From a virus (Duplodnaviria; Caudoviricetes): a stretch of DNA of 64,000 bases. Numbering within the stretch: position 1 is the stretch's first letter; every line of letters begins with the position of its first letter. The stretch is from the IMG/VR virus record IMGVR_UViG_3300047491_000255, positions 32,001-96,000 of that record. One strand, 5' to 3'. A model generated the notes under the pieces. That model was not told the DNA's origin. It ran no database searches and worked only from the letters and a program-made list of their open reading frames with translations. A program made the position numbers and the translations under genes. Positions 16,280 through 45,265 of this stretch are shown piece after piece.

Positions 16280-17326
16280 TTACTTCCAGTTCGCACTCAT
16301 CGTGGCGTATCCCGGCACGTTCGTTGATGAGGCAAACGTATTGATATCATTCGTTGGCGTCAGCACAGTATGGATCACATTCGTGCCCCAAAAAACCTGA
16401 CCGCCCCACAGTGGCATGTTTCTCCATGCACTGTCCAACGATCCAACGATGTTTCCGCCAGTCATTGAGATGTTCGTGGGAATCTGGAAATCTCCTGACG
16501 TTATTTTTGCCATTCCGTTGCAGGCGTAGTAGTACGCACCCACCGCTAGCGGTCCGGTCATATTGATGGCGCTCAAAAATCCGTCAGGCAGTGGGCCGGT
16601 CACGTTGGACATATTGTTGCAGGCGTTGTTAAACATGTTCGCCGCTGTCGGCCCGGTTAGCCTCGACGTGTCCATAAATCCGGCGGGCAGTGGGCCTGTC
16701 ACGTTTACCATGCCGTAGCAGGTGTAAGCTAACATGCCTGACCCTGGTGGCCCGGTTAGTGCCGAAGTATCCATGAATCCGTCAGGCAGTGGCCCGACCA
16801 AGCCAGACATGTTGATGAAGGATGCTAAAAACATACCTGCCGTCGGCGTTCCGGTAATTTTCCGAAACGGATTTGTCCGCATAGCAGTAACCCGCGGGTT
16901 GCTGGAAAAAATCGCTCTGTACGCATTCACCGCCGTAGCCGCGTAGTCGAGAGTCCCCGAAAACTCGCATGTGTAGGTCGGACTCGTGAGCGAGGTGTGG
17001 AACATGTTTTGATATGCACCGCTTGCATTTCTCCAGTCGCCACGGAACTTGATGTAACGCCCGCGCATCGTAATCGTGTTGCTCGTGTACGCCGTCCACA
17101 CGCCATTGCCCGCGTCGTATAGAGCCTGCGACGGTGTGGCCGGTCCCGCGTATGCCTCGCCGACGCCCAGCGAGAGCGTCGTTGGCGGAGTACCGGAAAC
17201 AAAGGTGATTGTGAAATGGGTGTCGCCACCCAGCTTCCCAAGCGGGTCAATCCTGCTCGGGATCCCCGCCCAGACCGCCGCCGCCGCCAGCGACATCGCG
17301 CAAAGTGTCAGTGTGAGTGTTCTCAT
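16280..17326 (-). CDS. Repeat-containing adhesin-like protein with signal-peptide-like N-terminus
   Basis: Start re-set to MRTLTLTLCAMSLAAAAVWA; three to four repeats of M.NVTGPLP.GF.DTS.LTGP (LRR-like solenoid). Confidence 0.7.
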   Translation of the reverse strand: MRTLTLTLCAMSLAAAAVWAGIPSRIDPLGKLGGDTHFTITFVSGTPPTTLSLGVGEAYAGPATPSQALYDAGNGVWTAYTSNTITMRGRYIKFRGDWRNASGAYQNMFHTSLTSPTYTCEFSGTLDYAATAVNAYRAIFSSNPRVTAMRTNPFRKITGTPTAGMFLASFINMSGLVGPLPDGFMDTSALTGPPGSGMLAYTCYGMVNVTGPLPAGFMDTSRLTGPTAANMFNNACNNMSNVTGPLPDGFLSAINMTGPLAVGAYYYACNGMAKITSGDFQIPTNISMTGGNIVGSLDSAWRNMPLWGGQVFWGTNVIHTVLTPTNDINTFASSTNVPGYATMSANWK

Positions 17327-17327
17327 G

Positions 17328-19733: not shown

Positions 19734-20020
19734 AGCCTTCCTCTCATCCTTCGAGCCGACTTGATCCCAAGCACACCGTCTGCAATCTTCTCCACTTGCA
19801 CGTCCTGTATCTTCCCTCTTATCCTGCGAAATACATCTAGACGATCTTCTGATCCACAACGCACGACTACATCATAGCCTCCTCCAAGAGGATGATGTAT
19901 CCCATCAGATACGATAAAACCATCACGCATCACCGTGGCAACCTCACGGCGAATCTCTTGAATCAAAGCAGCCGACATCATCAGATTGCCGATCTCCTCT
20001 ACCTCTCTTCCAAAATCCAT
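19730..20020 (-). CDS. Hypothetical protein
   Basis: 96-aa ORF coupled to next gene. Confidence 0.65.
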   Translation of the reverse strand: MDFGREVEEIGNLMMSAALIQEIRREVATVMRDGFIVSDGIHHPLGGGYDVVVRCGSEDRLDVFRRIRGKIQDVQVEKIADGVLGIKSARRMRGRL

Positions 20021-26275: not shown

Positions 26276-28030
26276 CTACTTCACGGTCCACTTCTCACGA
26301 ACCTGCTCCACTGTCGGCAGAGCAACCGTTCCTCCAATGCCCTCGGCTTGAAGCATCATAGAGAAAATCTTCTCACTGAAGCCTCCAACTTGATTGACAT
26401 GATCCCCGGCATCAACCGGAGCATCGCCGTACCCGTTAAGGTGAACGAGGTGGAGCCAAGTCTCAGCCGCAGCCTTACTTGACTTCCTGTACTTCGCCCA
26501 TGCATCTGCAAACGGCTGACCACCACCATTTTGACAATCGACCCACATCTGGCAGTCTGTCAGGATGATTACCCGTGCCGGAGTCTTACCCGAATTGATC
26601 AGGTGTTCAATGCACAAATGACCATTCGTTCCACCCCCATTACCAGACTTCTTCACCTTCTCACAGACGCCCATAACGGTATTCGTCTTGGCGAAGCGAA
26701 CCTCCTTCACATTCGTTCCGAAAGAGAATAAATATGCCCTCTCGCACGCCTTGGCTGCGATTCCCGCAAGCATGTTCGCTGCATCACGACAGTCACGAGC
26801 CGACCTCTCAGACAGAGTGTTACTCGTCATTGAACCAGAGTTATCAGCAAACAGCATGGTCTCACCCGGAATAACCGGGATATTGTAACATGACTCGTTT
26901 GCGGCTAGTTCAATAGCTGCCTCGACCTCCGATAAGTCTGCAAGATCGAATTCGCCAGACATCCCATCCAGTGCCGTCTTCGCAGACAGGAACCTGAACG
27001 GCAGTTGCTTCGACTTCACAACCTCGTCCTTGTTCGAGAGCTTGTCCGACACCTTCTGAATGACATCCTTGGAAACCTTCGCCTCTATGATGTTCCGCAG
27101 GTTACGAAGAAGAGCCATGTAACCGACCAGACCATTGTTGATCAGGAACGACCACACCGCATTCTTCTCCTTGCCGAATTGAGACAGCAAGACCTCCCAA
27201 TTGACCTGTGACTTCTTCGCCAGATCACGAGCCTCATCGTCAAACACCGTCTTCTTCGCCAACTCCTTACGAGCGGCGATGATCGGAGTCTTTGCAGGGT
27301 CATCGATCTTCCCGGTGATGAAATACTTGGCAACCTCACCATTCAAAGGCCAACCAGCCTTACGAGGAAGCCAGCAAAGCACGTCCTTCCAAGTCGGGAA
27401 GCCAGTGTCGTCATACTTCATCAGTCCACGCTCACCGAACTTACCCACCGCATCAGACAGACCGGTAGCCAAACTATTCGGCAGATTCTTCAGTCCGAAC
27501 AGAAACCGATGAACCAGCAAACAGGTCTTCACCTCGTCCGGACGCTTCACGATGTACGGAGCGTACTTCCGTACCAAAGGCTTCGTGCCATCAACATGAG
27601 AGGCCAACACCAATAAGACCTGCGGGGTCAAACGGATGTTCATCTCGTTACGAAGCCAGTTGGCGATAGCCAGAATGTCCTCGGGAGTCTTACCCCGTGC
27701 AACATCCAAAGCCGTAGAAATCACCTCACGGGCAGTTTCCGGGAGCTCATCACAGGTGATAAAGCCCTTCAGCTTGCCATCCACGATCTCCAGCCTCTCG
27801 GCCAGCTTATCGAACTTGCCACCAGTCCCACGCTTCGGCACACAGACCGCAGCATTATAGAACTTCGGCTCTGCGAAAAACGAACCACCAGTCATGGTGA
27901 TGAGCTTCAACGCCGGGTCAGAGACCTCAAACGCCACTCCACCTGCCCGGTTGACCGTAACAGTCTTTGCGTTGCTCGGCAGACGTGCCGCCGCAGCCCT
28001 CTTCCTCGCTACCGTCTTGAACGTGCTCAT
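26276..28030 (-). CDS. rsr: Ro60/Rsr-like TROVE + vWA domain RNA-binding protein
   Basis: NRAGGVAF start, LRNEMNIR, RPDE, YMALLRNLRNI, SKQLPFRFLSA TROVE motifs; DNSGSM MIDAS, GGTN and ILTDCQ in vWA; AAGGAGG RBS before ATG 28030. Confidence 0.93.
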   Translation of the reverse strand: MSTFKTVARKRAAAARLPSNAKTVTVNRAGGVAFEVSDPALKLITMTGGSFFAEPKFYNAAVCVPKRGTGGKFDKLAERLEIVDGKLKGFITCDELPETAREVISTALDVARGKTPEDILAIANWLRNEMNIRLTPQVLLVLASHVDGTKPLVRKYAPYIVKRPDEVKTCLLVHRFLFGLKNLPNSLATGLSDAVGKFGERGLMKYDDTGFPTWKDVLCWLPRKAGWPLNGEVAKYFITGKIDDPAKTPIIAARKELAKKTVFDDEARDLAKKSQVNWEVLLSQFGKEKNAVWSFLINNGLVGYMALLRNLRNIIEAKVSKDVIQKVSDKLSNKDEVVKSKQLPFRFLSAKTALDGMSGEFDLADLSEVEAAIELAANESCYNIPVIPGETMLFADNSGSMTSNTLSERSARDCRDAANMLAGIAAKACERAYLFSFGTNVKEVRFAKTNTVMGVCEKVKKSGNGGGTNGHLCIEHLINSGKTPARVIILTDCQMWVDCQNGGGQPFADAWAKYRKSSKAAAETWLHLVHLNGYGDAPVDAGDHVNQVGGFSEKIFSMMLQAEGIGGTVALPTVEQVREKWTVK

Positions 28031-28127
28031 TCTTCTATCATCCTCCTTGAAGGTGACATTTCTGCCACCAATTCTGTGCCTTACGGCACCCTTATTATCA
28101 ATGTTCCACATAGAACATTGCCATCCT

Positions 28128-28167
28128 AAAAAACAAAAAACCGAACATCCTTTTATAGATGTCCGGC
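28128..28167 (-). terminator. Intrinsic terminator downstream of tRNA
   Basis: GCCGGACATCT-loop-GGATGTTCGGT followed by TTTTTGTTTTTT on - strand. Confidence 0.8.
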
Positions 28168-28173
28168 TTTGAT

Positions 28174-28250
28174 TGGTAGCGGGGGCAGGATTTGAACCTG
28201 CGACCTTCAGGTTATGAACCTGCTAAGCTACCTGGCTGCTCCACCCCGCA
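28174..28250 (-). tRNA. tRNA-Met(CAT), initiator type
   Basis: TGCGGGGTGGAGCAGCCAGGTAGCT...TTCATAA...GGTTCAAATCC...CCCGCTACCA; 1:72 mismatch, encoded CCA, close to bacterial tRNA-fMet. Confidence 0.95.
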
Positions 28251-28257
28251 ATCAAAA

Positions 28258-28353
28258 GCCGACACCGATAGACGTTTGTGGTGTTTTTTCCCATTAAAAT
28301 CTCTGATCTTGGCCGCTAAAGCGTCCATCCAACCACAAACTGAAGGCATCAAC
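28258..28353 (-). ncRNA. Candidate Y-like RNA 1 (96-nt stem-loop)
   Basis: GTTGATGCC/GGTGTCGGC stem, TTCA/GTCTATC internal loop, GTTTGTGGT/ACCACAAAC stem, 3' U run; adjacent to Ro60 gene. Confidence 0.55.
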
Positions 28354-28357
28354 CAAA

Positions 28358-28453
28358 TCTTGTGAACTAATCAAACTCCAATAGTCGCATTGAGAACGCT
28401 GTCTTTTCTATAGAAGTATCTCAACACTGAAGGAGTTTGATTAGTTCACAAGA
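28358..28453 (-). ncRNA. Candidate Y-like RNA 2 (96-nt stem-loop)
   Basis: Perfect 22-bp inverted repeat, then TTCA/GACTATT internal loop and a second stem; same loop motif as RNA 1. Confidence 0.55.
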
Positions 28454-28455
28454 AT

Positions 28456-28485
28456 ACTATACTCTCTATCTCTGAAAGTTTGCAA
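28456..28485 (-). promoter_or_regulatory. Sigma70-like promoter for the hairpin-hairpin-tRNA unit
   Basis: TTGCAA-18 bp-TATAGT with upstream A tract. Confidence 0.65.
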
Positions 28486-28509
28486 CACTTTTTTCGACTT
28501 TCAGAAAAA

Positions 28510-28917
28510 TGGTGGAGGCGAGGAGAGTCGAACTCCTGTCCGCATGACACATACTACCTAACATACACATGCTTCTTCACGATTCTTATCGACCCCGGAC
28601 TTGGTCTATCCCGTCTTTCCGAGATGTCTTTGACTATCTACCCCGGTGCGTCTCATTCCCGGTATCATCTGTCTTTGCAGATCGTCACCCACATTCTTTA
28701 ATCCTCATCCAGATGTCGTGGAGACTCTGGCGTTTTGGAGGTGTGCTGTTAAGCAGCCGCCAGCATCGGAGCAGCCGAAGCCGGACCGAAGAACCAGCGA
28801 GTCACCGATCCAACAGTTTTGCCTGTTAGTGTTTTTCAGGAAAGATTTACGAGGCCAACCTGAGTCCTCGGCATGTCATCAGGTTTCAACACCACACGTC
28901 GAATACCTTACGCCCCC
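28510..28917 (-). ncRNA. ssrA: tmRNA
   Basis: 5' GGGGGCG pairs with 3' CGCCTCC-ACCA including G3:U; T arm GGAGTTCGACTCTCC; tag frame 28823-28749 ends LAAA-stop. Confidence 0.95.
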
Positions 28918-28921
28918 ATTA

Positions 28922-28931
28922 TCAAAGAACA
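28922..28931 (-). promoter_or_regulatory. boxA-like antitermination site before tmRNA
   Basis: TGTTCTTTGA 4 nt upstream of the tmRNA 5' end. Confidence 0.6.
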
Positions 28932-29223
28932 GTCGGGCTTTCATGCACCCGATGAGAGGTTTCGGACTAAGCCTACTTCCAGCAGATTGTTACGTCACTT
29001 CTTTATACTCGGTTGGCAACCAGAACAATCAACAGTTTCGCCGACGATTACCGAGTTGAACATCGCTCCTACCTTGCAGCAGCTAGGCAACCTGCATCAT
29101 CGAGCGGAATACCGATGTCCATCTATCCACTCGTCATCATTACATTACCAGATTCCTTCCAGAATACAATAAAAAATTTTTGGTGACCTCTCCCTCCCGT
29201 CAAGCAGTACCAGAAGCATCTGG

Positions 29224-29421
29224 CTACTTTAGCCCTAAGTTGGGTGTATCGTCGTCCGCAAAGAAAACGTCATGGCATTCCCACGCTGGAGGCCCGCAGT
29301 GGTAGCAGTTGGTTTTAGGATCGTCTGGGTCTTGGTTCCTGTCGGAACACGTCTTGCATGGGTCAGGAACACCCAGCAAGGCGTCCGATGCTACCTTCAT
29401 CTGCTCGATTCGCTCACTCAT
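29224..29421 (-). CDS. Cassette-borne Cys-rich hypothetical protein
   Basis: CKTC...CYHC; starts in attC 29371-29447. Confidence 0.6.
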   Translation of the reverse strand: MSERIEQMKVASDALLGVPDPCKTCSDRNQDPDDPKTNCYHCGPPAWECHDVFFADDDTPNLGLK

Positions 29422-29447
29422 TTCGGAGCCTCAACCTTGTGTTCTGT
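29371..29447 (+). mobile_element. attC-like site A (degenerate R'')
   Basis: ACCCAGC ... agcctcaac ... GTTCTGT; near copy of site D core. Confidence 0.6.
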
Positions 29448-29635
29448 ATGTACTCTTCGAGATACGCTTGGCAGATTCGACGCATTTCCATCCAAGACTG
29501 GCGGCCTGCCTTGCGACCGTACATGAGCCGTAGTTGCACGTTCGGAGGCGCGGCCAAGAACATGCGTTGATATGGGTGCAGAACCATTTGCTCCTCCGTA
29601 TGCCGGGGAGTGGCAGGCGTTTCAGGTGCGGTCAT
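29414..29635 (-). CDS. Cassette-borne hypothetical protein
   Basis: MTAPETPA...EYIQNTRLRLRNE; GAGGAG RBS inside attC B. Confidence 0.55.
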   Translation of the reverse strand: MTAPETPATPRHTEEQMVLHPYQRMFLAAPPNVQLRLMYGRKAGRQSWMEMRRICQAYLEEYIQNTRLRLRNE

Positions 29636-29680
29636 TTCGGTTCTCCTCGCTCCCCGGAAACGGAGAGCACGGTGTTCGGC
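29578..29680 (+). mobile_element. attC-like site B
   Basis: GCAGAAC; gctc(c)tccgt/acggagagc with extra C; ccggggag/ctccccgg; GTTCGGC. Confidence 0.8.
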
Positions 29681-29685
29681 GCTAC

Positions 29686-29871
29686 TCATTTCGGCATCAC
29701 TCGCAATTCGGACCACAGTGCGTCCCAATAGGTCGCCTTCGGTCCGCTGGTGAACTTGTTGAACGCCCTCGCCTCTAAATAGGGCTGCATGAGCAACAAC
29801 AGCGACGGCCCGACAACCAGCAGCGCAAGCACGATGAATACAAAACTTATCTTCACATCTTCCTTGTTCAT
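29686..29871 (-). CDS. Cassette-borne small membrane protein
   Basis: 61 aa with long hydrophobic helix; AAAGG RBS. Confidence 0.65.
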   Translation of the reverse strand: MNKEDVKISFVFIVLALLVVGPSLLLLMQPYLEARAFNKFTSGPKATYWDALWSELRVMPK

Positions 29872-29894
29872 CGTCGTTTCCTTTCAAAGCGGAG

Positions 29895-29952
29895 CGCCAA
29901 CAAGGCGCTCCAGTTGACTCACTTCGCTTGCAACTGAGTTTTGTCGTTCGGC
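29895..29952 (+). mobile_element. attC-like site C
   Basis: CGCCAAC; gctc(c)agttg/caactgagt with extra C; GTTCGGC; 58 bp. Confidence 0.85.
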
Positions 29953-30146
29953 GTCACGAGTACTTGCGTGACCTTGCCACGTCCTTCCGCCTCGGCACGC
30001 TTGTAGTGGTCTGGCGAGCACATGCGGACGACCAACTCAGACGGGTACAGGTGGCGATATTCGCTTTTCTCGGCGTCCCACCACGCCCACAGAACCGCCG
30101 AACCAGGCGTTTGAGGGCTACCTTCATTCTTCGCTTCGCTCGTCAT
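29919..30146 (-). CDS. Cassette-borne hypothetical protein
   Basis: 75 aa; starts in attC D, stops in attC C. Confidence 0.65.
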   Translation of the reverse strand: MTSEAKNEGSPQTPGSAVLWAWWDAEKSEYRHLYPSELVVRMCSPDHYKRAEAEGRGKVTQVLVTPNDKTQLQAK

Positions 30147-30173
30147 TTCGGAGCCTCAACTCTCTCGTAGGGC
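30097..30173 (+). mobile_element. attC-like site D (R' GTA variant)
   Basis: GCCGAAC; gtttgagggct/agcctcaac; GTAGGGC. Confidence 0.75.
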
Positions 30174-30430
30174 GAAACCACGACGCGCTCAGTACGCTCG
30201 ATGATCCGATGCCGATACGTTTCGCCATGTCCGCGATTTGTTTCACATTCATGTCTCAGTTTGTGAATAGCTTCTTGCAGCGCCTTGCACTCTGGGATGT
30301 CCGGGTCGGCATACCATCCATCGCGGCAGTCGGGTCTTGCCTCTTGGACGACGAATCGCCGAACCAAGCGGTCCAGCGGATGAGCGCCAACGGCGTCATT
30401 CGCAAATGGTGGCTTTGTGGTGGCGCTCAT
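30143..30430 (-). CDS. Cassette-borne hypothetical protein
   Basis: 95 aa; ATGA overlaps at both ends, each inside an attC. Confidence 0.65.
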   Translation of the reverse strand: MSATTKPPFANDAVGAHPLDRLVRRFVVQEARPDCRDGWYADPDIPECKALQEAIHKLRHECETNRGHGETYRHRIIERTERVVVSPYERVEAPK

Positions 30431-30451
30431 CGCTGACCTTTCTCGTTCGGC
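30358..30451 (+). mobile_element. attC-like site E
   Basis: GCCGAAC; ggtc(c)agcg(g)atgagcgcca/tggcgctcatcgctgacc with two extrahelical bases; GTTCGGC. Confidence 0.88.
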
Positions 30452-30651
30452 AACTCAATGCACGCGCCTATGGCGTTCCCGCCTGGTGTCGGAAACGTGT
30501 CGCCGCAAAACCACTTCCACCCGTCTCGGATTCGCGTCCAGTGCCCACCGTTGAAGGCGTGCGCTTTGGTGCCAATCGGGTAGTCGTTCCAGTCACGATC
30601 CTTCCACAGTCTGGCCGAACCAGACGGTTGAAAAAATTCACTACCGCTCAA
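30427..30651 (-). CDS. Cassette-borne Trp-rich hypothetical protein
   Basis: 74 aa; AGGAGGT RBS; carries GCCGAAC (30614-30620) complementary to the cassette start. Confidence 0.65.
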   Translation of the reverse strand: MSGSEFFQPSGSARLWKDRDWNDYPIGTKAHAFNGGHWTRIRDGWKWFCGDTFPTPGGNAIGACIELPNEKGQR

Positions 30652-30672
30652 TGCTTACCTCCTTGTTCTCAA

Positions 30673-30891
30673 TCATAGCCACAGCCGCACCGCCTTTCCG
30701 TGTCTCGGATGCTGTTCATTGACTCGCACAGTTTCAACGGTTGTCTCGAATACGTTTGGCACGCCGCAGGTCATATTCGAGTCTTGATCTGGCAATGTGC
30801 TACCAGTACAGGTCACTTCGATGTTCCCGTGTTCTTTGCGGACGCGCCGCAGTTCTTCGATCAGTTGGTCAATCTTCATGCTGTCCTCCAT
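30673..30891 (-). CDS. Hypothetical protein
   Basis: MKIDQLIEELRRVRKEHGNIEV, a common small phage protein pattern. Confidence 0.65.
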   Translation of the reverse strand: MEDSMKIDQLIEELRRVRKEHGNIEVTCTGSTLPDQDSNMTCGVPNVFETTVETVRVNEQHPRHGKAVRLWL

Positions 30892-30909
30892 TTGTTGCGA
30901 ACAACCGCG

Positions 30910-31242
30910 TCACTCTTCCACCTGGTACATCGTCTTCCCGTTGCTTTGCATGCGCATTTCAACGACCCCCGCGCCCATTACCGCGATGTACTCGCGGCCG
31001 GTGTCCACGTCGCGCAGCACAAGGATGTCGCGGCTATGCCCTTCAGCGTCGTTGATGACCTGAGCAGACGTGACGTTGAACCTTCCGCTCTGCTCGGCCT
31101 TCAGCTTCTCGTTGCTCACTGGCGTCGGGTCGGAACACCCGGCCAACAAGGCGCTGGTAACTACGGCGATAGTACACCCGGTAAACAAGGCGCTGGTAAC
31201 TACGGCGATAGTACACCCAGCAAACGTGATTCTCCTGTTCAT
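30910..31242 (-). CDS. Putative lipoprotein in cassette array
   Basis: Signal with LLAGC lipobox; 13-aa duplication in the signal region. Confidence 0.65.
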   Translation of the reverse strand: MNRRITFAGCTIAVVTSALFTGCTIAVVTSALLAGCSDPTPVSNEKLKAEQSGRFNVTSAQVINDAEGHSRDILVLRDVDTGREYIAVMGAGVVEMRMQSNGKTMYQVEE

Positions 31243-31290
31243 GCGTTCCTTTCTGGCGTCTGCCGCCGAGTTTCAGCTTTGTCGTTACAG
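31141..31290 (+). mobile_element. attC-like site with internal 39-bp duplication
   Basis: GGCCAAC; gctggtaactacggcg/cgccgagtttcagc; GTTACAG. Confidence 0.65.
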
Positions 31291-31374
31291 ATCGAGCCTT
31301 CCGTCCGCTTGTTAGCGGGGTCATAGTGGAAAACCTAGCGTACAGACCTTTCGGCCACTCCCGCAGGTAAATCA

Positions 31375-31925
31375 AATGACTGTCTCTCCAGCCTGTCACC
31401 GATCTCCTTTATCTCGACTGGCTACCTTACAGTGCTACGGTCGCCGTCACCAGTCAAAGTCCGATTTCCACAGACGCCCTTTCAGGTCGAACACGACTGA
31501 CGGAATACCTTTTCAGTCTTTGGGAGCTTTTCATTCCCGTTTCCGTCATCGGGTTCGGGACAATCGATTTCCCCTCTAGGGAAATCGACTACCTCCCCAC
31601 CATCCAATCATCGGGATTCTCTGCTATATTCGTTTTAGGTTCGTATTGATAAAGACCAGCATATCCTTCCCGATTTCGTGAGCCATTAGCGACCTCTTCT
31701 ACCTAACTAATCTCAGGAAGGGATCATCTCCCCCCTGATTTAGCTTCGACCTGCTCACAGGCGGGCTTGGAACCGCCTTGCCGCATTACTGGCCCGACAT
31801 TGCCTCTTCCGGGTGTTACTCCGGACGTACAGTCGGCCAGTCCTCTGCGATTACTGACAACCAATAAGGTGTCAGTCACCTCAAGATTAAAAACTGGCAG
31901 GACGGATTCTCGCCGTCGCACTTGT
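31375..31925 (-). ncRNA. Unclassified structured RNA region (one or more RNAs)
   Basis: No credible ORF; series of stems, e.g. TAATCTTGAGG/CCTGAGATTA, ATCGGGA/TCCCGAT, TCGATTTCCC/GGGAAATCGA, TGACGGAA/TTCCGTCA. Confidence 0.55.
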
Positions 31926-32054
31926 CTCCCTCATCCTCATCCGCCTCCAAAAAACAGCCTTTTATTTGAGAAGCCATTAACTTAGAGGTCTTACTGATGT
32001 TTTTTGAGATCATCGACTCTTTTTTTATTTTGCCCAAGAGGACGAACCTCCATG

Positions 32055-32346
32055 TTTACTATTGCACCCGACAAGAGGCATCGTTAGCCTTGCCCAAATT
32101 TCCCCCCGCTTCACCACCCTTGTTCCCTACGACTTGCGCCCGGATTGCTCCGTGTCACAGTCTCGGAGGGGGTGTGGCAGCCATTCAGGTTCCTTCGAGA
32201 CCCTGTAGCCTTTTACTACCCTTGCCTGTGTGTGCCGCCTGTTTTCAGACGGCTGACCGTGTTTCGGAATTACCCTACTTTGCGGATTTTTAGCGCATTG
32301 GGACTTCATGCGCAGACACGTTAAATGCCGTGTCACTACCAGTAAA
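32055..32346 (-). ncRNA. Unclassified ~290-nt structured RNA
   Basis: Starts just after boxA; ends pair (TTTACTG/TAGTAAA); hairpins GACACG/CGTGTC, GCGCAT/ATGCGC, GCCGTCTG/CAGGCGGC. Confidence 0.6.
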
Positions 32347-32352
32347 AATCAG

Positions 32353-32365
32353 TTTTCAAAGAGCA
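32353..32365 (-). promoter_or_regulatory. boxA-like site
   Basis: TGCTCTTTGAAAA. Confidence 0.7.
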
Positions 32366-32458
32366 TCGAGCGTCTCGGGTCCAATTTCATAACCCGACTT
32401 GAGCCGCTTCTCAGTCCAATCGGTTTCCCGATCTTAGCTCCACGGCTGATACTCGAAA

Positions 32459-32796
32459 GGACTTTGTGATGGCGTGCTGTTACGCCAAAGAATCCACCAT
32501 GCGGTTGAGTATGGCCTACGTCAAAATCGCGGTCCGCACGAACATTTTTGACGCCGGGAGCCGCAACCTCCTTCGCCACACAACAGGGCAGTACACTCTA
32601 CCGCACCCCCGATGGCTCCGGCATGATCTTTCGATCTTCCGTCTCTTCGAGATGCAAGACATCCGGTTCCGTCCGGCCTACCCAATCCCCGTTGCGCCAC
32701 TCCGAATAGCCGCTATTCCAACGGCACTCACGTAGTGATTCTCAGCGATGCACTCATTAAGGTGGCTGCCTCTAAGCCCACCACCATCACTAGTCC
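32459..32796 (-). ncRNA. 338-nt RNA mimicking 23S rRNA H42-H44 (uL11-binding GTPase-associated centre)
   Basis: GGTGGGCTTAGAGGCAGCCACC (H43-like) near 5' end; GCGTAACAGC (H44-like) near 3' end; closed by GTGATGG/CCATCAC and GGACT/AGTCC. Confidence 0.8.
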
Positions 32797-32799
32797 AAA

Positions 32800-32812
32800 T
32801 TGTCAAAGAACA
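32800..32812 (-). promoter_or_regulatory. boxA-like site
   Basis: TGTTCTTTGACAA, 3 nt before the 338-nt RNA. Confidence 0.7.
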
Positions 32813-32813
32813 T

Positions 32814-33019
32814 GTGAAGCCACGATCCATACCGTCCCAGGTTCGGGCTGACCCTACTACTGACTGGAATTGAACCAGCTTTGTCGCCTCACACTCAGAT
32901 TCTCTATTGAGGATTCTGGATGGCCGCTAAACCCTTCTCCATCGCCTCACTCTCCTGTCTTGTTGACCGCTAAGCCAATGACTCGGTTTGCTATGGCAAC
33001 GCCAAAATCCTCAGTAGAA
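32814..33019 (-). ncRNA. Stem-loop RNA plus permuted tRNA-like domain
   Basis: TACTGAGGATTTTGG/CCAGAATCCTCAATA stem (about 32900-33019), then GTGAGGC/GCTTCAC stem enclosing T arm GCTGGTTCAATTCCAGT. Confidence 0.5.
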
Positions 33020-33037
33020 CATCCTCACATCCATACA

Positions 33038-33505
33038 TTACCGATTCTTTTTCAGAATACGGGAAAAAAATGTTTTTTTCTTTTGAGTCTCTTCGACGTT
33101 CTCGTCGATGGTGACGACATTGTCCGGTCCCCGTTCAGACTCCACAGTAGGCTCAATCTCTAGGTCTGCCGCCTTCACACCATCTTCGATCTTGTCTGGA
33201 GCTGTGCCCTTCGGCTTCGATCCTGCGATATTCAAAATCAGCTCTCCAAGCTTTGTATCGATCACACGACCCGGAACGATCTCCTCGCCATCCTGACGCC
33301 GCTTCTCCGTGTCTATCTTATGAGCTTCGATCTGATGCCTGTAAGACCAATTACGAACCCCTTCCTTCCATTCCCCATCAATCAGGACATCCAGACGATA
33401 CCTCTTATCAGGATTGTTTCTCTGAATGTTTCGCTTCTTCCGAATCGCATTGGCACGAGCTTGCTTTTTCTGCCACCTCTTACGCTCTACTCTTGTCTGA
33501 CCCAT
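33038..33505 (-). CDS. Hypothetical basic protein
   Basis: 155 aa, AGGAGG RBS, upstream TATAAT. Confidence 0.7.
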   Translation of the reverse strand: MGQTRVERKRWQKKQARANAIRKKRNIQRNNPDKRYRLDVLIDGEWKEGVRNWSYRHQIEAHKIDTEKRRQDGEEIVPGRVIDTKLGELILNIAGSKPKGTAPDKIEDGVKAADLEIEPTVESERGPDNVVTIDENVEETQKKKTFFSRILKKNR

Positions 33506-33637
33506 ATTGCCATCCTCCTAGATAATTCGTTCGAGATTGACTATATCAACCAACACGAACATTATACGCGGAAGGCAAAATATTTTGAAATAAAAATCTA
33601 CCACTCTTTTTGCGGTCCTCTTATCCGACCATATATT

Positions 33638-33976
33638 TTATCGGAGTTGAGATATTCCGCTTTCAGTAAGCCGTCTTTCGATCTCTGGTGTCATTGGAAG
33701 ATCGGCAATTCCTGTTGCAAACACGGAACCGTCTCCATTTCCTCCCATAAACACACCAGATGATATGACGTTGCCCATACGACCAGCTTCCCTGCGAGCA
33801 AATGTACTCGCTCGATCTGCCAACTTATTAGACCGAGAAACATTCAAAGCCGTCTTTGCAGATTCAGGAATGATTGCTAATACATATACCTTAGCCTCAT
33901 CTTCATTCCGAACCCAACACAATTTTACTCCCGACATAGCACAAGATAATGAAGACATCATATTTTTCACAGTCAT
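33638..33976 (-). CDS. Hypothetical protein
   Basis: AAGGAGG RBS before ATG 33976. Confidence 0.6.
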   Translation of the reverse strand: MTVKNMMSSLSCAMSGVKLCWVRNEDEAKVYVLAIIPESAKTALNVSRSNKLADRASTFARREAGRMGNVISSGVFMGGNGDGSVFATGIADLPMTPEIERRLTESGISQLR

Positions 33977-33996
33977 ATTGCCCTCCTTCCATTTCT

Positions 33997-34989
33997 TCAA
34001 TTCATCATGCCACGTTCAAAACACTCATGAATATCAAGCTTGAACTTCGTATGCTTTCGATCTTCCAGCTCAATGTCTGTGTAATTGTCCTTAGCCTTTG
34101 GAGATTCTTTCCATCCATTCCCTCCACAAGTCTCTCCAACCTGTTTACCCGTTGTAAAGACGAGATCATTCCTGCCCGCTCCAACATGAAGCACACTGTC
34201 CTGATTGTACTTATTTCCGAGTTCTTCAAGCATTTTCCGGCGACTCTTGCTTTCATCACCATCCTTGTGATGAACCATCAAGGACTTTTGTGTTTTTGGC
34301 GTTAGCTCGGTATCGTCATGAAACACTAGGAACGTGCTCTCTGGACCACCATAATGACCTACAACCTCGGTGTATGGAAGACCAGCCCTCTCTAAATCAA
34401 TTCTAAGTTTTTCATGTCTCTTGTGGAAAAACTCATCATCAGGTGCCATACCTGCTTCCTTTGGAAAATTCTTGTTTCTGCCAGCAGAAATAAGCGTGAA
34501 ATGACCCTTTGTGAGAGTATCTACTAGCTTCGGCTTGCTTAACGGAATATACGCCTTGTATTGAATTCTCTTCTTTGGCTTAGGATCAGCCGTCTCATCC
34601 TTCTTCGTTGGCATCGTCACTTTAGACTTATTTTGTTGTGCGTCAGGAGATTTCCCCTCTGGAGGAGCCTTGCGATTCACCACTTTCAGTTTCGTGTCTT
34701 TCCTAACATCATGCTCTCTTTGATATTTATTAAGAGCGTCCTGTGTTGGGAAATCGATACCAACAAATACCCTAGCCACTCGATCAGCTAAAAAGCTCTC
34801 GACAATCCTAGATGAAATAGCCGCAGTTCTTGAAGCCTTAAAATCCTTAATCAAATCATCAACATACCAAGTATTAACCATATTGTGTGGATCAAGATGA
34901 TACTTCTCACGATTGTCCAATGCGTATTCCACAAAATCATCCACATTGAATCTATGATTCTTCGCAACAGTTTCTAATGTATTCCACAT
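33997..34989 (-). CDS. Multi-domain hypothetical protein (DUF3293-like C-terminal domain)
   Basis: FTLISAGRN...GHYGGPESTFLV...LGNKYNQDSVL; carries the DFPTQDA motif. Confidence 0.6.
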   Translation of the reverse strand: MWNTLETVAKNHRFNVDDFVEYALDNREKYHLDPHNMVNTWYVDDLIKDFKASRTAAISSRIVESFLADRVARVFVGIDFPTQDALNKYQREHDVRKDTKLKVVNRKAPPEGKSPDAQQNKSKVTMPTKKDETADPKPKKRIQYKAYIPLSKPKLVDTLTKGHFTLISAGRNKNFPKEAGMAPDDEFFHKRHEKLRIDLERAGLPYTEVVGHYGGPESTFLVFHDDTELTPKTQKSLMVHHKDGDESKSRRKMLEELGNKYNQDSVLHVGAGRNDLVFTTGKQVGETCGGNGWKESPKAKDNYTDIELEDRKHTKFKLDIHECFERGMMN

Positions 34990-35011
34990 AATAGTTATTC
35001 ACCTTTCATTC

Positions 35012-35752
35012 TCATGACCATCCATCTATCGCTAAAGCATCATGTAAATCATCAATCTGTTGCCGACATCTCAGTTCTAACGCACTTGACTCAGCATGAG
35101 CCTTAGAGTAGGGAACACCTTGTTCCATGAGATTCCTCTCGTGAATTTCATGTAGGATTACGAATCCACGTTCTTGCCAATTCAAATCGTTATCAATCCA
35201 CACATCCATAGGCGGGATATACTCATAAACATACTCGTGACCGCCTTGAGTAAAATCTATATGCAAAACACTGCGAACAAGTCGTCCATTGACAACCCAT
35301 ACCTTGACTCCGCTTTCCAGCGTCTTGATGAGTTTTATTCTGAATAACTTAGGATCAACTATTTTCCGAATGGGATCAATCACTTGTTTAATATCCCCAT
35401 CCTTCCGACGAATATTCTTCTCGACCTGATCTGCCTCTACAATGGCTTCCGCATAGGATTTTCCATTGCGCATCAAAGACCATTCTATTTTGAGATGCTC
35501 GATGTAATAACTGGACTCATCATTTGAGCTTTCCTTGTCCAGCCAAAACTCTGTCTCAGGAATAAACGGGAAACGATAGTGCTGACCAAAATTGGTGAAT
35601 TCCTCATCGATGTAGGTGCGAATATATTCGCCATCCACGACCCATACCTTGATTTCCGTATCCTGTGCTTTAGCAGTATCCTTCAATTCGAGACGAGGAT
35701 ATTCCACAGAGGCAACGGAATCAGCCAATCTTAGAATTCGAGCATTGTCCAT
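35012..35752 (-). CDS. Tandem-domain zincin-like protein
   Basis: Two copies of VWVV.G...R.....FT..G.HY/H.Y...IP....W.D; second has HEIHE...SKAH. Confidence 0.6.
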   Translation of the reverse strand: MDNARILRLADSVASVEYPRLELKDTAKAQDTEIKVWVVDGEYIRTYIDEEFTNFGQHYRFPFIPETEFWLDKESSNDESSYYIEHLKIEWSLMRNGKSYAEAIVEADQVEKNIRRKDGDIKQVIDPIRKIVDPKLFRIKLIKTLESGVKVWVVNGRLVRSVLHIDFTQGGHEYVYEYIPPMDVWIDNDLNWQERGFVILHEIHERNLMEQGVPYSKAHAESSALELRCRQQIDDLHDALAIDGWS

Positions 35753-36005
35753 TCTTATGATCTCCTCCATTAAGGGAAGAAATATCAATAAAAAATGACA
35801 ATTAGCGCAGATTATGATCTTGCGGTAATCATCTACCCTTGGGTCCGCACTTCTTGAAGTGATCCGGCGGAACCTTCTCTGTTGAACGATGTTGCCCGTT
35901 TGGATGCCAGAATCAGAGCTTCACGACAAGTGCGGGCAACTGCCATGACGAGTTTCGAATCCCTGTCAAGACCATCATTAGGACCGATCTGTTAATATGC
36001 TGCCT

Positions 36006-41750: not shown

Positions 41751-42041
41751 TTGATTGTTCTCCATCTGACCAATGGTTAATACGCACATCCAGCACATCC
41801 GAATACAAGCCCATGATAGCCTCTTGGCGTCGCAACCTTCTCCGCCACTACACTCGCTTTATATGGTTTCACATCTGATCCTTTCTAATCTCTATTATAC
41901 GCCCGGAAACGGATTCTTATCCGCAAACAGCTAATATCTCTTATCGAGTACGATTTTCAGCTTTATCTATGAAACATTTGCTGCCTTCCCGATATTCTGC
42001 TCTTCTATCCAGTCTTGAACCGCCTGATATACACCCTTCTC

Positions 42042-42080
42042 AAAAAGAAAAGCCTCGGGAGTTCATCACTCCCGAGGCTT
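42042..42080 (-). terminator. Intrinsic terminator after major capsid gene
   Basis: AAGCCTCGGGAGT-loop-ACTCCCGAGGCTT then TTCTTTTT. Confidence 0.85.
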
Positions 42081-42105
42081 CCTTGCTTTCTATCGAACCG
42101 CGTGG

Positions 42106-42966
42106 TTAGACGCGAGTGATGGAAAGTACTTGGAGTGCAAAGGGATTATACGCCCCAATGCCTATTTGCTCGAAGATCGAGAATCCGATCAGACGGTTCT
42201 TAGGATCGTCGGCGGACAGGACCGTCAACTCCGTGCGAACCGGGATACGACCGAAGAACTCTGCTTCGCCGCACACGTAGACCGTACCTTCCGGCACGAT
42301 ACGTGACACGATGAGCTTTGCTCCCCAGAGCGTCGCCATCAGACCCGTCTTCAACAGAATCGCCTGAGTCTCGATGTCCAGCGTGTCCCGATCCCACTTA
42401 CGCAGGTCGGCATAGTCCTTGGCATTCAGGAACACGGTAGCGACACGAATGTCGGTACGCTCCACGTTTGCGAAGGCGTCAGCCAATGCGTTTGCGGTCA
42501 GGTTGCCAGTCACCGGAATGACAGGATTCGGATTCGTCGGGTCAGCAGCCAGAGCGTCCATGACTGCGAAAACCTTGCGGTCCTCCTCAGCCTGAATCTC
42601 CGCCTTACCCAAGTCAACCGAACGTTCGATCAGGTCGAACCGACGTTGCTTGATCTCCGTGAGCTGGATTTCCGGGTTCGAGGCGATCTCGAACAGAGGG
42701 AACAGCACACGCTTCGGCTTTGCAACCGCCACGATGTTTTCGCCCTCTTCGCCAACGACGTATGCCGTGACGTTCGGGTCCTTGTCGTAGATCGGCAGTG
42801 CGCCATCGGGGAGAGCTTCCACGAAGAACCCCTTACGACCAACCGACATGTAGTCTCTCCGGCGACGGAGAGGCTGGATCATGCTCGCTGCCAAACGCTG
42901 ACGCCCTGCGGCGGTGCGAATGTACTGAGAGATGATGTCTTGCTTCATTTGATTGTCTACAGCCAT
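42106..42966 (-). CDS. Major capsid protein (HK97-like fold)
   Basis: 286 aa, strongly biased codons, AGGAGG RBS, AEEDRKVF spine helix, LWGAKLIVSRIVPEGTVYV; follows scaffold and decoration genes. Confidence 0.88.
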   Translation of the reverse strand: MAVDNQMKQDIISQYIRTAAGRQRLAASMIQPLRRRRDYMSVGRKGFFVEALPDGALPIYDKDPNVTAYVVGEEGENIVAVAKPKRVLFPLFEIASNPEIQLTEIKQRRFDLIERSVDLGKAEIQAEEDRKVFAVMDALAADPTNPNPVIPVTGNLTANALADAFANVERTDIRVATVFLNAKDYADLRKWDRDTLDIETQAILLKTGLMATLWGAKLIVSRIVPEGTVYVCGEAEFFGRIPVRTELTVLSADDPKNRLIGFSIFEQIGIGAYNPFALQVLSITRV

Positions 42967-42979
42967 GGTGATATCCTCC

Positions 42980-43474
42980 TTATAGCCTCATGTCCAATCC
43001 CAAGGTAGGGCTTGAGGTTGATGGGGCCTTGGTGACTACCCCGATCAACACAGACGACGCCGTGGTTTCCTTCGTCAGGAAGCCCTGGGCCGAACCGTAC
43101 AGGAGATCGCCAACAGCATAAACCAAGTCTGCGTTTGCGGCCGCATTCCTAGTCTCATACACGTCGACTTCCACCGATGCATGAGCCTTCATAACGGCTA
43201 CTTTACCACTAGCTACCGCCGGGCTGTTCTCGAACGCTGCGCCCGCAGCGTCATTGACGAACAATCCAACAGGTTGCAGAGCGGTCGTCATCGGAACAAC
43301 TGTGTAATCCAGTCCAGCGCTGACCGCTGCAACAGAACCACCCAATACGCCCCGAGGAGTATTGACACTCAACGTCGTATTCGTGTTCACGCCGTAGTTG
43401 CTTTTGGTAAAGCAAGCGTCCGACAGAACAGGAATAGAGTTAAGTTGCCCACGAATTAGGATAGTCAGTGACAT
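42980..43474 (-). CDS. Capsid decoration/cement protein
   Basis: Ala/Val/Gly-rich, YAVGDLLY...G.LT...IGVVTKAP pattern, directly upstream of capsid gene. Confidence 0.7.
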   Translation of the reverse strand: MSLTILIRGQLNSIPVLSDACFTKSNYGVNTNTTLSVNTPRGVLGGSVAAVSAGLDYTVVPMTTALQPVGLFVNDAAGAAFENSPAVASGKVAVMKAHASVEVDVYETRNAAANADLVYAVGDLLYGSAQGFLTKETTASSVLIGVVTKAPSTSSPTLGLDMRL

Positions 43475-43560
43475 TCTTAATTCCCTCTTTCCTTTTTTGA
43501 TTCAACAAACGGCTATTACTTGTTTCAAACTCACGCCCCGTGAGGGGCGTGAGGCATTCA

Positions 43561-44736
43561 TTACTTGAACGCTTCGCTGACATCTGGAGCCGACTGCCAG
43601 ATGGAGCTAATGTCGACGCCTTCCGCACCAGCGGAGGCGACTCTCGGCTGCCCGCCGAGTTTCGATATGCCGGCCTTCTTCTGTGAAGCCTCGACCTTGC
43701 GGTCTGAGGTCACCGCTGTCATCCCTTCGGAGAACAGCACAGAAGCCAACCGTTCGTCTGCTTCAGGGTCAGGAGCAACCTCATCCTCCATCGCAGCGCT
43801 AAGCTCGATGTCGAACTCATTCATTCCCTTCCTCGTTGCAGAAGCTTTCTTCTCGTCGACCTTATCGCCGACCTTCTCGTCAATCTTCTCGCCATCAGCG
43901 GCAACCTTGGGCTGCTCATCTGAACCAGGCTTTTCGATAACAGGCTTGAGTTGAGACTCGGTAGCAGCCTTCTTCTCTTCGGTCTTTTCGACCTTGTCTT
44001 CGACCTTCTCATCTGCTGCTTTCTTCTCTTTCTTCTCGTCCTTCTCGTCTACCTTCTTCTGGATGAAGTCGGGGAGAGCGGCTTTGATAGCTTCAGAGAC
44101 GATAGCGGCAATCATCGCCTTCATATCCTTGCCATCATCCTTCTCCTCAACCTTTTCATCGGCTGCTGCCTTCTTATCTTCTACCTTCTCCTCAACCTTT
44201 TCATCGGCTGCTGCCTTCTTATCATCCTTCTCCTCAACCTTTTCGTCGGCTGCTACCTTCTTATCTTCTACCTTCTCATCAGCCGCCTTCTTCTCATCAG
44301 CCGCATCCTCGTCCTTTTCGTCGACCTTCTCATCTTCGGCATAAAGCTTCTGCGTATCGGCGAAACGCTGAAGTGTGCGATCCATTGCCTGAGGACCCAT
44401 AGCCATAAAGTCATGAGCCTGTGCCTCAACTACATCGTCGTCGACCTTCTCGCCGAGCAACAACATAGCCACACGAACTGCTTTATTGGCAGCGACACGC
44501 ACAGAAGCGACAGTCGGGGACCGACCCCACACCTCTGGCACGCCAAAACCAATATCATCACGGCTGTCATCCTGCCACTGATGGCGCATGTCAGGAAGTT
44601 CGTGATTCACCTGCTGCTTGAAAGTGTGATACTGATCCCAACTTGGGTCCCTGCGGTCAGGCTGGTTGACATTGCCGGGATAAGGGGTTTGATCTGCCGC
44701 TGACCGGACACGGGATGTAAGTCTAACTCTATTCAT
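43561..44736 (-). CDS. Capsid scaffolding-like protein
   Basis: AGGAGG RBS before MNRVRL; repeated KKAAADEKVE(E/D)K charged units; between protease and capsid genes. Confidence 0.65.
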   Translation of the reverse strand: MNRVRLTSRVRSAADQTPYPGNVNQPDRRDPSWDQYHTFKQQVNHELPDMRHQWQDDSRDDIGFGVPEVWGRSPTVASVRVAANKAVRVAMLLLGEKVDDDVVEAQAHDFMAMGPQAMDRTLQRFADTQKLYAEDEKVDEKDEDAADEKKAADEKVEDKKVAADEKVEEKDDKKAAADEKVEEKVEDKKAAADEKVEEKDDGKDMKAMIAAIVSEAIKAALPDFIQKKVDEKDEKKEKKAADEKVEDKVEKTEEKKAATESQLKPVIEKPGSDEQPKVAADGEKIDEKVGDKVDEKKASATRKGMNEFDIELSAAMEDEVAPDPEADERLASVLFSEGMTAVTSDRKVEASQKKAGISKLGGQPRVASAGAEGVDISSIWQSAPDVSEAFK

Positions 44737-44764
44737 GTTTTCTATCCTCCTTGTGTGATACTTC

Positions 44765-45265
44765 TTATGATTTTGATTCGAACTTAGCCACACGAGCGTC
44801 AATCGAATCGGCGATCCTGTCGATACGCAGAGCCATTGCCGTCCGTCCAGACTTCTCAAGATATTCCGCCACAGCATCCAACCGGGCAGACGCACTCTTC
44901 AGCCGAGCCACATAACCCGTCGGAGCTGCATCCAACATTGAATCGTCGGTTGTCAGTTCCGTTCCGTGTTCGAGGTCCTCAACTTCGGTAAGAGATTTCT
45001 GCGTGATCTGTTCCTCCACGCCATCCGGGTCAACCAAGGACGCCTTCTTCTCGTCCTTCTCGTCAACCTTCTCGTCAATCTCCTCGTCATCAGAATCATC
45101 AGCAGCTTTGAGCTTCAACTCAAGCGCTTCGATCTGAGCCGCAAGAACCTGACGCTCGCTCGCTTCCTTCTTGTCGGCTTCATCTGCCGAATCATCCTTG
45201 TCAGCAGCGAAACGACTCTCAAGTGCGGCAACTCTCCGTGCCAAGTTTGTCATGTCTATGCTCAT
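44765..45265 (-). CDS. Acidic head-associated hypothetical protein
   Basis: 166 aa with scaffold-like charged stretches. Confidence 0.65.
   Translation of the reverse strand: MSIDMTNLARRVAALESRFAADKDDSADEADKKEASERQVLAAQIEALELKLKAADDSDDEEIDEKVDEKDEKKASLVDPDGVEEQITQKSLTEVEDLEHGTELTTDDSMLDAAPTGYVARLKSASARLDAVAEYLEKSGRTAMALRIDRIADSIDARVAKFESKS

Follow-up and report, generated by a model that had tools for sequence, protein, structure and literature searches.

In a 64,000-nucleotide (nt) stretch of a freshwater phage genome (positions 32,001 to 96,000 of IMG/VR record IMGVR_UViG_3300047491_000255; hereafter the window), an element on the minus strand forms a self-closed copy of the GTPase-associated centre of 23S ribosomal RNA (rRNA), into which a domain of 262 nt is inserted. 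The element is a member of a large family of free-standing, non-coding phage RNAs, and this family is selected, self-closed and rRNA-like. The GTPase-associated centre consists of the tip of helix 42 (H42), H43 and H44 (E. coli 23S positions 1051–1108, the numbering used below), and holds the domain of about 58 nt that binds ribosomal protein uL11 and thiostrepton and is contacted by translational GTPases. By analogy with that domain, we tentatively favour the reading that the RNA is an off-ribosome mimic whose function would be to bind the uL11 of the host, with the insert as a lineage-specific expansion. The letters of the two mimic halves, first read in a preliminary description of the window, are confirmed on the minus strand (32796–32459).

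A phage RNA family with a covarying rRNA-like fold

The IMG/VR collection was scanned with a 15-letter loop motif, which returned at least 120 loci. Among the loci listed, most share their flanks, followed by a GCGTAAYAGC-ACAC motif and the complement of the 5' flank; 63 distinct elements carry both halves, and a single locus (L087) is an ordinary contiguous 23S fragment. Thirty elements with an insert of at most 155 nt and no second insert, which were not picked for complementarity and do not include the window copy, were aligned (alignment A1), the rRNA-like structure was drawn on the alignment, and its pairs were counted against 500 shuffles. Paired cells make up 91.0% in A1 versus 65.6 ± 1.2% in the shuffles, none of which reaches the observed value, and the covariation score is 0.614 versus 0.149. 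When the 3' partner is slid by 1–3 columns, pairing falls to 33–53%. Changes on both sides occur at all nine pairs of the closing stem P1, at two of three pairs of the lower H43 stem, and at each of the first four pairs of the stem at the base of the insert, and the 1082:1086 pair is UA in 14, CG in 9 and AU in 3 of the 30 sequences. The earlier statement that the ends of the window element pair over two helices is borne out: GGACU/AGUCC is paired in the minimum-free-energy fold, and GUGAUGG/CCAUCAC corresponds to P1, which covaries in the family.

A covariance model of 175 positions (R1) was built from these 30 other phage sequences, a search that the preliminary description had suggested. 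R1 recovers the window element over its full length (32792–32462, model positions 1–175, 52.3 bits, E = 2.4e-15), and the sole other match in the 64 kb is 9 nt long (E = 3.3). The full-length match therefore marks the element as more than a chance resemblance. No second copy was found with the family model, whether in the window or elsewhere in the record.

Correspondence with the ribosomal centre

In the reverse direction, R1 aligns end to end with the true centre of six of six authentic 23S genes at 50.5–54.3 bits, and the only parts deleted in these alignments are the insert and a UUUG linker. (The six comprise three from mimic-carrying Clostridia genomes, the second contig of one of these, a Salmonella record, and a fragment in a Dickeya phage record.) The family and the 23S centre thus share the order of elements, the loop sequences, the secondary structure, and the bases that hold the fold, and differ in four phage features: a closing stem, unconstrained in sequence, where rRNA has H42, an A at position 1101, the UUUG linker, and an insertion between 1090 and 1091. 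Position 1101 is A in 66 of 68 unique 3' halves of the family and U in all six real 23S genes, and each position of the linker is kept in 62–66 of the 68. Being shared and derived, these characters argue for one origin of the family and against repeated capture of host rRNA.

The window element differs from the 23S centre in that its lower H43 stem is shortened and in that it does not lie within an rRNA gene. The source record (124,818 bases, 50% complete by CheckV) gave no match to LSU_rRNA_bacteria (RF02541), a model that found the large subunit (LSU) rRNA in 13 of 14 control genomes, and no LSU match is seen around the element at E values up to 10. The earlier observation that no other rRNA is nearby therefore holds for the 124.8-kb record. 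Membership in R1, helix covariation and reciprocal matches to real 23S uphold the view, also expressed at the outset, that this is a selected mimic rather than chance or stray rRNA.

For base conservation, the 1067-type loop was read from the 59 unique 5' halves of loci retrieved with only the 3' motif, which avoids the bias of the first pattern, and the 1095-type loop from 68 unique sequences fished by the 5' motif with a GCG...GC register filter. Invariant positions are G1059, U1060, G1063, U1066, G1071 and C1072 in the 5' halves and A1098 in the 3' halves; nearly invariant are A1077 and C1075 (58/59 each), A1073 (57/59) and U1094 (67/68). Roles of single bases in the triples and tertiary pairs of the domain are reportedly described in the crystal structures of 1999. 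The remaining positions are looser: 1061 varies, as does 1097 (U 30, C 28, A 9, G 1), and substitutions are found at A1067 (A 45, G 10, C 3, U 1), G1068 (G 43, A 16), A1070 (A 45, G 14), A1095 (A 61, G 5, C 2) and A1096 (A 56, G 11, U 1).

The interface with the C-terminal domain (C-domain) of uL11 is given as 1058–1060, 1062–1065, 1075–1083 and 1088, and the thiostrepton site is placed at the loops with A1067 and A1095, in the accessible text of PMC1802607. The invariant bases of the 5' half, and A1077, sit in or beside this interface. According to the part of PMC6239185 available, binding of uL11 needs the tertiary fold; conservation among organisms is lacking at 1061, A1067 and A1069; and A1070 and A1095 are invariant in rRNA without making tertiary contacts, A1095 contacting cofactors. 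The pattern thus suggests that the family keeps what the fold and the uL11 C-domain require and leaves to drift two bases that are fixed in rRNA for its work with factors (A1070 and A1095).

We also compared the lower H43 stem (AUG/CAU) of mimics with that of 23S genes. The two are identical in six of six pairs, yet the agreement is not informative, because about three independent lineages are represented and AUG/CAU is the commonest type anyway; three of the 23S sequences came from the carriers' own genomes, whereas for the other three an Enterobacterales sequence from a species other than the actual host was used.

Anatomy of the window element

Feature coordinates are collected in Table 1. 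Both factor-contacting loops are retained in the correct order, as the preliminary description had stated, and this can be read from the sequence as well as from the R1 alignment. The arrangement of GAGU, insert, UUUG, hairpin (of the GC-GUAAYA-GC type) and A-C is present at 32755–32474 with the base of the insert paired, as in the family. The window copy is nevertheless a divergent member. In the alignment to the model, two deletions leave its lower H43 stem with two pairs where the consensus has three, and the 1078 bulge is missing; the equivalents of 1082:1086 form a U–U mismatch, as in the TTAATGAGT variants of four other loci (L017, L041, L090 and L092); and the 1070 position is G, where rRNA has an invariant A. 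These features of H43 mark divergence within the family, not exclusion from it.

The insert separates the counterparts of 1090 and 1091 and comes after the AGU bulge, within the bulge of H44, as placed by the Rfam LSU consensus and structure line. This is one base further than the position of about 1089/1090 first proposed, and is the usual site of inserts in the family, with the UUUG linker after it. The presence of an inserted domain was correctly recognized at that stage, and its length of about 270 nt is here corrected to 262 nt, among the longest of the family inserts, which range from 14 to about 330 nt.

Table 1. Features of the window element and of its surroundings (window positions)
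Feature	Position	Strand	Basis or remark
Whole element, 338 nt	32459-32796	minus	Self-closed copy of 23S GTPase-associated centre with inserted domain
Outer stem, 5' strand GGACU	32796-32792	minus	Paired in minimum-free-energy fold; outside family model
Outer stem, 3' strand AGUCC	32463-32459	minus	Partner of GGACU; minimum-free-energy fold
Closing stem P1, 5' strand GUGAUGG	32790-32784	minus	Replaces H42 tip; aligned to model P1
Closing stem P1, 3' strand CCAUCAC	32472-32466	minus	Pairs with GUGAUGG; model alignment
H43 copy, GG-U-(G)-GGC / UUAGAGGCA / GCC-A-CC	32782-32761	minus	Sequence and model alignment
H43 loop, UUAGAGGCA	32775-32767	minus	A1067 equivalent 32773; G at 1070 position 32770
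Turn UUAAU, equivalent of 1082-1086	32760-32756	minus	Model alignment
GAGU: G1087 equivalent (pairs with C32474) and AGU bulge	32755-32752	minus	Rfam LSU consensus/structure and model
Inserted domain, 262 nt, base stem GCAUC/GAUUC (one C-U mismatch)	32751-32490	minus	Sequence and model
UUUG linker, family-specific, absent from rRNA	32489-32486	minus	Model and 3'-half conservation
H44 hairpin GC-GUAACA-GC	32485-32476	minus	A1095 equivalent 32481; sequence, model, conservation
A-C-G after H44 hairpin	32475-32473	minus	A at 1101; C1102 equivalent pairs with G32755; G at 1103
Twister-P5 ribozyme	31761-31849	minus	Rfam, 48.6 bits (gathering score 37.6); 40-nt insertion in one loop
Transfer-messenger RNA (tmRNA), tag AHLQNARVSTTSG	28510-28917	minus	Rfam
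Near-perfect 119-nt hairpin	28344-28462	minus	Chance-level microRNA match in Rfam
tRNA-Met	28174-28250	minus	Rfam
Ro60 homologue	26276-28111	minus	TROVE 6.3e-22; Ro60 vWA 1.5e-07

The insert and its relatives in sequencing runs

A blastn comparison of the element with 120 other loci gave matches in the core halves alone and none between the inserts, and no match to 31300–33100 was found in 50,697 phage records. Some insert motifs recur in sub-groups of A1, among them the blocks CACCCC...GGTAAGG and TGCGAAATG. An exact 18-mer of the window's variant has no viral match; its five metagenome matches are chance occurrences in coding DNA, and none of the five matches R1. A second 18-mer, from a neighbouring module (32137–32154), hits two viral loci, both by chance.

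The whole stretch is present in three DNA sequencing runs, which may be its source. Four other runs were compared with it, and relatives occur in contigs of two RNA libraries from two other freshwater studies. Record 11 of run X7 (344 nt) carries the core halves 32470–32490 and 32763–32786 with one difference, and between them 262 unrelated letters. Record 12 of X7 (264 nt) matches 32475–32510 and 32658–32746 with 3 and 14 differences; the outer 89 + 36 nt of the insert are kept and 147 nt of its middle are replaced by 139 others. Record 7 of X5 (435 nt) matches 32763–32781 and 32555–32596. These relatives suggest a constant core and an insert rebuilt from the tip inward, like an expansion segment. 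In a DNA run (X8 record 17), 33025–33059 is joined, after 10 other letters, to the mimic 3' half 32464–32510 ('goes back 596'), which indicates a relative that has either two copies or these modules in another order. Neither the stretches without cover in the RNA runs (31200–31327 and 32800–33100) nor the small word shares of X4–X8 have a bearing on expression level or habitat, and the A/U runs and adapter letters at the ends of run contigs are not usable as RNA ends.

As a separate observation, contigs from two RNA libraries and from one DNA run contain relatives, 85–99% alike, of two further minus-strand stretches, 31382–31777 and 32001–32335, which belong to the ORF-poor 1.8-kb region around the element. 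Neither stretch has a match in Rfam, and both may be further structured RNAs.

Distribution and gene context of the family

Among the matches listed from the loop-motif scan, 78 of 99 loci (L001–L099) have a full-length R1 match of at least 44 bits and one more, L028, has a weak match; 16 of a further 21 (L100–L120) match at no less than 47 bits, one of these matches being cut by the end of the locus. One locus (L083) holds two copies, at 287–527 and 604–873, with a transfer RNA (tRNA) gene between them. Fishing by the 3' motif alone, a non-rRNA sequence, yielded at least 119 further viral loci, and in 110 of those listed a 5' half could be detected within the DNA available. This 3' motif is also present in 44 stretches of a genome collection, from isolates and metagenome-assembled genomes labelled as many phyla; R1 was run on 23 of the 44 and gave 13 strong matches (80–137 bits), 8 weak ones and none in 2. 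Cultured carriers are Pseudomonas phage pf16 (114.8 bits), Cronobacter phage GAP32 (86.3), Pectobacterium phage CBB (84.8) and Erwinia phage Kaldavass (89.7), in all of which the mimic is unannotated or overlapped by a short 'hypothetical protein'.

Members are often found among tRNA genes. In pf16 the mimic occupies the gap between tRNA-Asn and tRNA-Pro, and within L001–L060 a tRNA or tmRNA gene lies on the same strand within 700 nt of 28 of 49 members but of none of 11 non-member loci, the spacers to the adjoining genes often being 0–5 nt. Genes or pieces of tmRNA, a permuted tmRNA among them, are found no more than a few hundred bases from the mimic in four loci (L017, L057, L058 and L059); the count refers to 20 loci scanned with Rfam, and L057 was identified by ARAGORN. 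No ribozyme is seen beside the mimic in the 18 mimic-bearing loci of the same scan.

In the R1 alignment, element lengths are 113–381 nt (n = 80, median 202.5), the window copy with 331 being the third longest, and a compact member of 68 nt (L021, 686–753) has no insert. A second insertion site holds a hairpin of about 20–45 nt directly after the equivalent of A1077, on the 3' strand of H43 (L006, L026, L037, L042, L075, L076, L082, L109, L113 and L116). Another locus (L108, 244–347) has a contiguous 104-nt copy, which corresponds to positions 1071–1173 of the Rfam LSU model (68.4 bits) with no further rRNA around it.

A gene for uL11 is absent from all 51 carrier records, so any uL11 partner would be that of the host. 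A bL12 gene is present in 3–5 of the 51 and absent from the window's record, and a TROVE gene is present in 3–4 of 50 further records with a mimic, in one of which (G040) it lies about 1.3 kb from the mimic. From these three checks in carriers, no constant protein partner gene emerged.

Genomic setting of the window copy

Nearly all genes of the window are on the minus strand, as is the element, which lies within a 1.8-kb stretch (about 31243–33037) without convincing open reading frames (ORFs). Rfam 15 at gathering thresholds found three RNAs in the window (a tmRNA, a tRNA at 28177–28250 and a Twister-P5 ribozyme, all minus), and, chance-level matches aside, only these in 27000–36000 at E values up to 10. 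No Rfam family falls on the element at either setting, which disposes of the possibility, raised in the preliminary description, that it matches one already described; searches of the same range at E up to 10 gave no intron or ribozyme model within the insert (32490–32751) and no Y-RNA family match.

The ribozyme is 610 nt downstream of the element on the same strand, and the tmRNA and tRNA-Met genes are 3.5–4.3 kb downstream, also on the same strand; no tRNA gene abuts the element. The Ro60 gene follows directly downstream of tRNA-Met, the 119-nt hairpin and the tmRNA, 4.4 kb from the element. The main tRNA array, about 50 kb away, has 13 genes on the minus strand (record positions 113405–124456) and reaches the contig end; its gaps of 0.3–5 kb contain no Rfam family and no copy of the mimic. 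None of 20 shuffles of the stretch 31700–32460 folds as well as the stretch itself (z = −3.69). A terminator scan gave sites at chance level (4 versus 1.6 ± 1.2 expected), and no ribosomal-protein domain was found in the ORFs neighbouring the element.

Two genes upstream of the element, a 330-residue protein (33997–34989, minus) has a C-terminal S-adenosylmethionine lyase-like domain (1.5e-07); a pattern scan of IMG/VR for related loci found no relatives of it. A protein of the CCA-adding enzyme/poly(A) polymerase family with an HD domain (59115–60593, minus; PolyA_pol 1.6e-17) is a further RNA-handling gene of this phage. Two blocks of the window are rich in G+C: 16001–19000 (0.56–0.61 versus about 0.45 for the genome) looks like a recent acquisition and contains an ORF (17328–19859, minus) for an 843-residue protein with BspA-type leucine-rich repeats (7.5e-15), and 42001–45000 contains ORFs without Pfam matches.

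Possible functions

In the favoured reading, the paired 5' and 3' ends (P1) would re-create H43, H44 and the three-way junction between helices of the uL11-binding domain, and the element would adopt the same compact tertiary structure as the rRNA domain and bind host uL11 away from the ribosome. It could then serve as a sponge or an imitation site and so change the supply of uL11 to ribosomes or to other partners during infection. The 262-nt insert would be an expansion tolerated by the core in this lineage and not the working part; the core is taken as the constant part because inserts differ widely in length, are unrelated, and are absent from the compact L021. Canonical members are more likely to bind uL11 in vitro than to have this binding as their function, and for the shortened variant of the window such binding is somewhat less likely. 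A longer chain of events, to which we give a low probability, is that off-ribosome copies made by phages of many lineages would capture new host uL11, that ribosomes built or mended in the course of infection would lack uL11 and could not activate RelA, that the stringent response would be blinded while elongation continues, and that inserts would add lineage-specific partners or stability.

Several observations weigh against uL11 binding or against the treatment of the insert. The short lower H43 stem and missing 1078 bulge of the window copy fall within the published uL11 C-domain interface (1075–1083), and so does the A1077-adjacent second hairpin of about ten members. In A1, the upper H43 stem and loop are invariant because the fishing pattern forces them to be. 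Neither the whole element (z = −2.32; 3 of 100 shuffles fold as well) nor the insert folded alone (−95.8 kcal/mol, z = −0.71) is strongly above shuffles in stability; no close relative was found that would allow a covariation test of the insert. The window copy does not abut tRNA genes, a promoter scan found no promoter-like site upstream of it on the minus strand, and the presence of relatives in RNA libraries does not show transcription and is a hint only. Binding of the stalk protein uL10, raised in the preliminary description, is unlikely, since the place of H42 is taken by a short closing stem whose sequence is arbitrary and covaries.

A different possibility, which we consider unlikely, is that the RNA is a decoy substrate for a toxin or enzyme aimed at the centre (from the host's defences or a competitor; for instance a nuclease, methyltransferase or ADP-ribosyltransferase), which it would soak up, thereby sparing the ribosomes. 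Some phage tRNAs may take the place of host RNAs under attack or outcompete them, and the mimic is located among phage tRNA and tmRNA genes; to our knowledge, no defence system is aimed at the GTPase-associated centre. The centre is a real target in bacterial conflict, as the toxin Tre23 is described in the accessible text of PMC8661411 as ADP-ribosylating H44 at 1095–1098, and G1093, U1094 and A1098 are nearly invariant in the family. However, within the Tre23 target stretch A1095 and A1096 are changed in 7 and 12 of 68 sequences, the strongest conservation is in the fold core and not in exposed bases, and no conserved protein partner gene is seen in carriers.

The rRNA-like core might instead be a scaffold, a stable, ion-dependent clamp that presents the variable insert as an aptamer, guide or protein platform. 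Most members have the insert at the same place on a covarying base stem, the two insert blocks recur in sub-groups, and X7 record 12 keeps the outer parts of the window's insert. We find the proposal doubtful, given the compact member without insert, the lack of relation and the wide range of length among inserts of different lineages, and the unrelated letters at the insert place in X7 record 11; moreover, the exposed loops are kept beyond the needs of a clamp (A in 45/59 at the 1067-type and 61/68 at the 1095-type position). The earlier suggestion that the element tethers its inserted domain is weakened by the same compact member and unrelated inserts.

Decidedly less probable is a factor decoy, in which the RNA, alone or with uL11, would engage translational GTPases or RelA and damp the stringent response or retune translation. 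The right order of the two factor-contacting loops, the majority of A at 1067 and 1095, and the translation-related gene context agree with it. Yet A1067, A1070 and A1095 are each changed in 10–24% of unique variants, although A1070 and A1095 are described as invariant in rRNA (PMC6239185, in part), the window copy has G at 1070, and the record, which has no LSU match, lacks the sarcin–ricin loop that makes up the rest of the factor site. The pure form of this decoy, put forward in the preliminary description, thus fits poorly with A in 45/59 (1067), 45/59 (1070) and 61/68 (1095).

We regard it as highly improbable that the element is a module of a larger, twister-processed RNA transcribed from the 1.8-kb stretch and perhaps bound by Ro60 in the manner of a Y RNA. 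The nearby ribozyme, the Ro60 gene downstream, the TROVE gene close to the mimic in carrier G040 and the better-than-shuffled fold of 31700–32460 point this way; across the family, TROVE is found in only a few carriers, ribozymes are absent beside the mimic in the 18 loci, and most members are flanked directly by tRNAs, and no Y-RNA family match was obtained here. That the element is a neutral relic, a functionless fragment of host 23S picked up by a phage, has next to no probability: likeness to 23S and the occurrence of short true 23S fragments in viral collections (L087) are outweighed by a covarying closing stem, conserved insertion sites, a UUUG linker and A at 1101 common to hundreds of contigs, and presence in unrelated cultured phages.

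Comparison with known systems

We found no description of a free-standing imitation of a functional rRNA centre in Rfam 15 or in the full-text literature searched. In the accessible text of PMC12286853 only a loop named L11a is mentioned, and the main text of PMC10690425, which reports 10,006 candidate viral RNAs, is without 23S, L11 or GTPase in the part available; its supplementary tables may hold the family unnamed. The family is abundant (at least 120 and at least 119 loci by two motif scans of IMG/VR) and spans many host phyla, and its unannotated presence in pf16, GAP32, CBB and Kaldavass makes it testable at the bench at once. If uL11 is bound, the RNA would be a new viral route into host translation and stress signalling; if it is an enzyme decoy, it would point to an unknown attack on the GTPase centre of the ribosome. 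The window adds one of the longest inserts, a copy outside any tRNA array that lies next to a twister ribozyme and near a Ro60 gene, relatives in contigs of RNA libraries, and a member of a family in which bases of the fold and the uL11 interface are fixed while factor-contacting bases drift.

Among known RNAs, the autoregulatory messenger RNA leaders of ribosomal proteins imitate rRNA binding sites, the L10 leader (RF00557) being an example. Like the mimic, L10-type leaders are off-ribosome RNAs that copy an rRNA protein-binding site, and they do so from the same 23S neighbourhood. Unlike the mimic, which is free-standing, encoded by phages and located among tRNA genes, they are cis-acting 5' leaders of bacterial ribosomal-protein operons; no ribosomal-protein gene is beside the mimic, uL11 is absent from the 51 carriers, and no leader family matches at E up to 10. 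The T4 RNAs rnaC and rnaD (species 1 and 2) resemble the family in being stable non-tRNA RNAs of unknown function that are placed head to tail with phage tRNAs. They were tried as relatives and rejected, with a best R1 score of 5.2 bits (E = 0.17, filters off) and no relation in sequence or structure.

Bacterial and phage Y RNAs bound by Ro60 are, as described in the accessible part of PMC4201824, modular non-coding RNAs with paired ends that imitate an RNA of translation (tRNA), and in this they are like the mimic. The mimic differs from them in having no Ro60-binding stem signature and no Y-RNA match, and in that TROVE accompanies it in 3–4 of 50 carriers only. Among the translation-related genes already known in phages are those for tRNAs, tmRNAs and a few ribosomal proteins. 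Relative to what is in print, the mimic family is a new kind of phage RNA, and the window element is an unusual further member of it.

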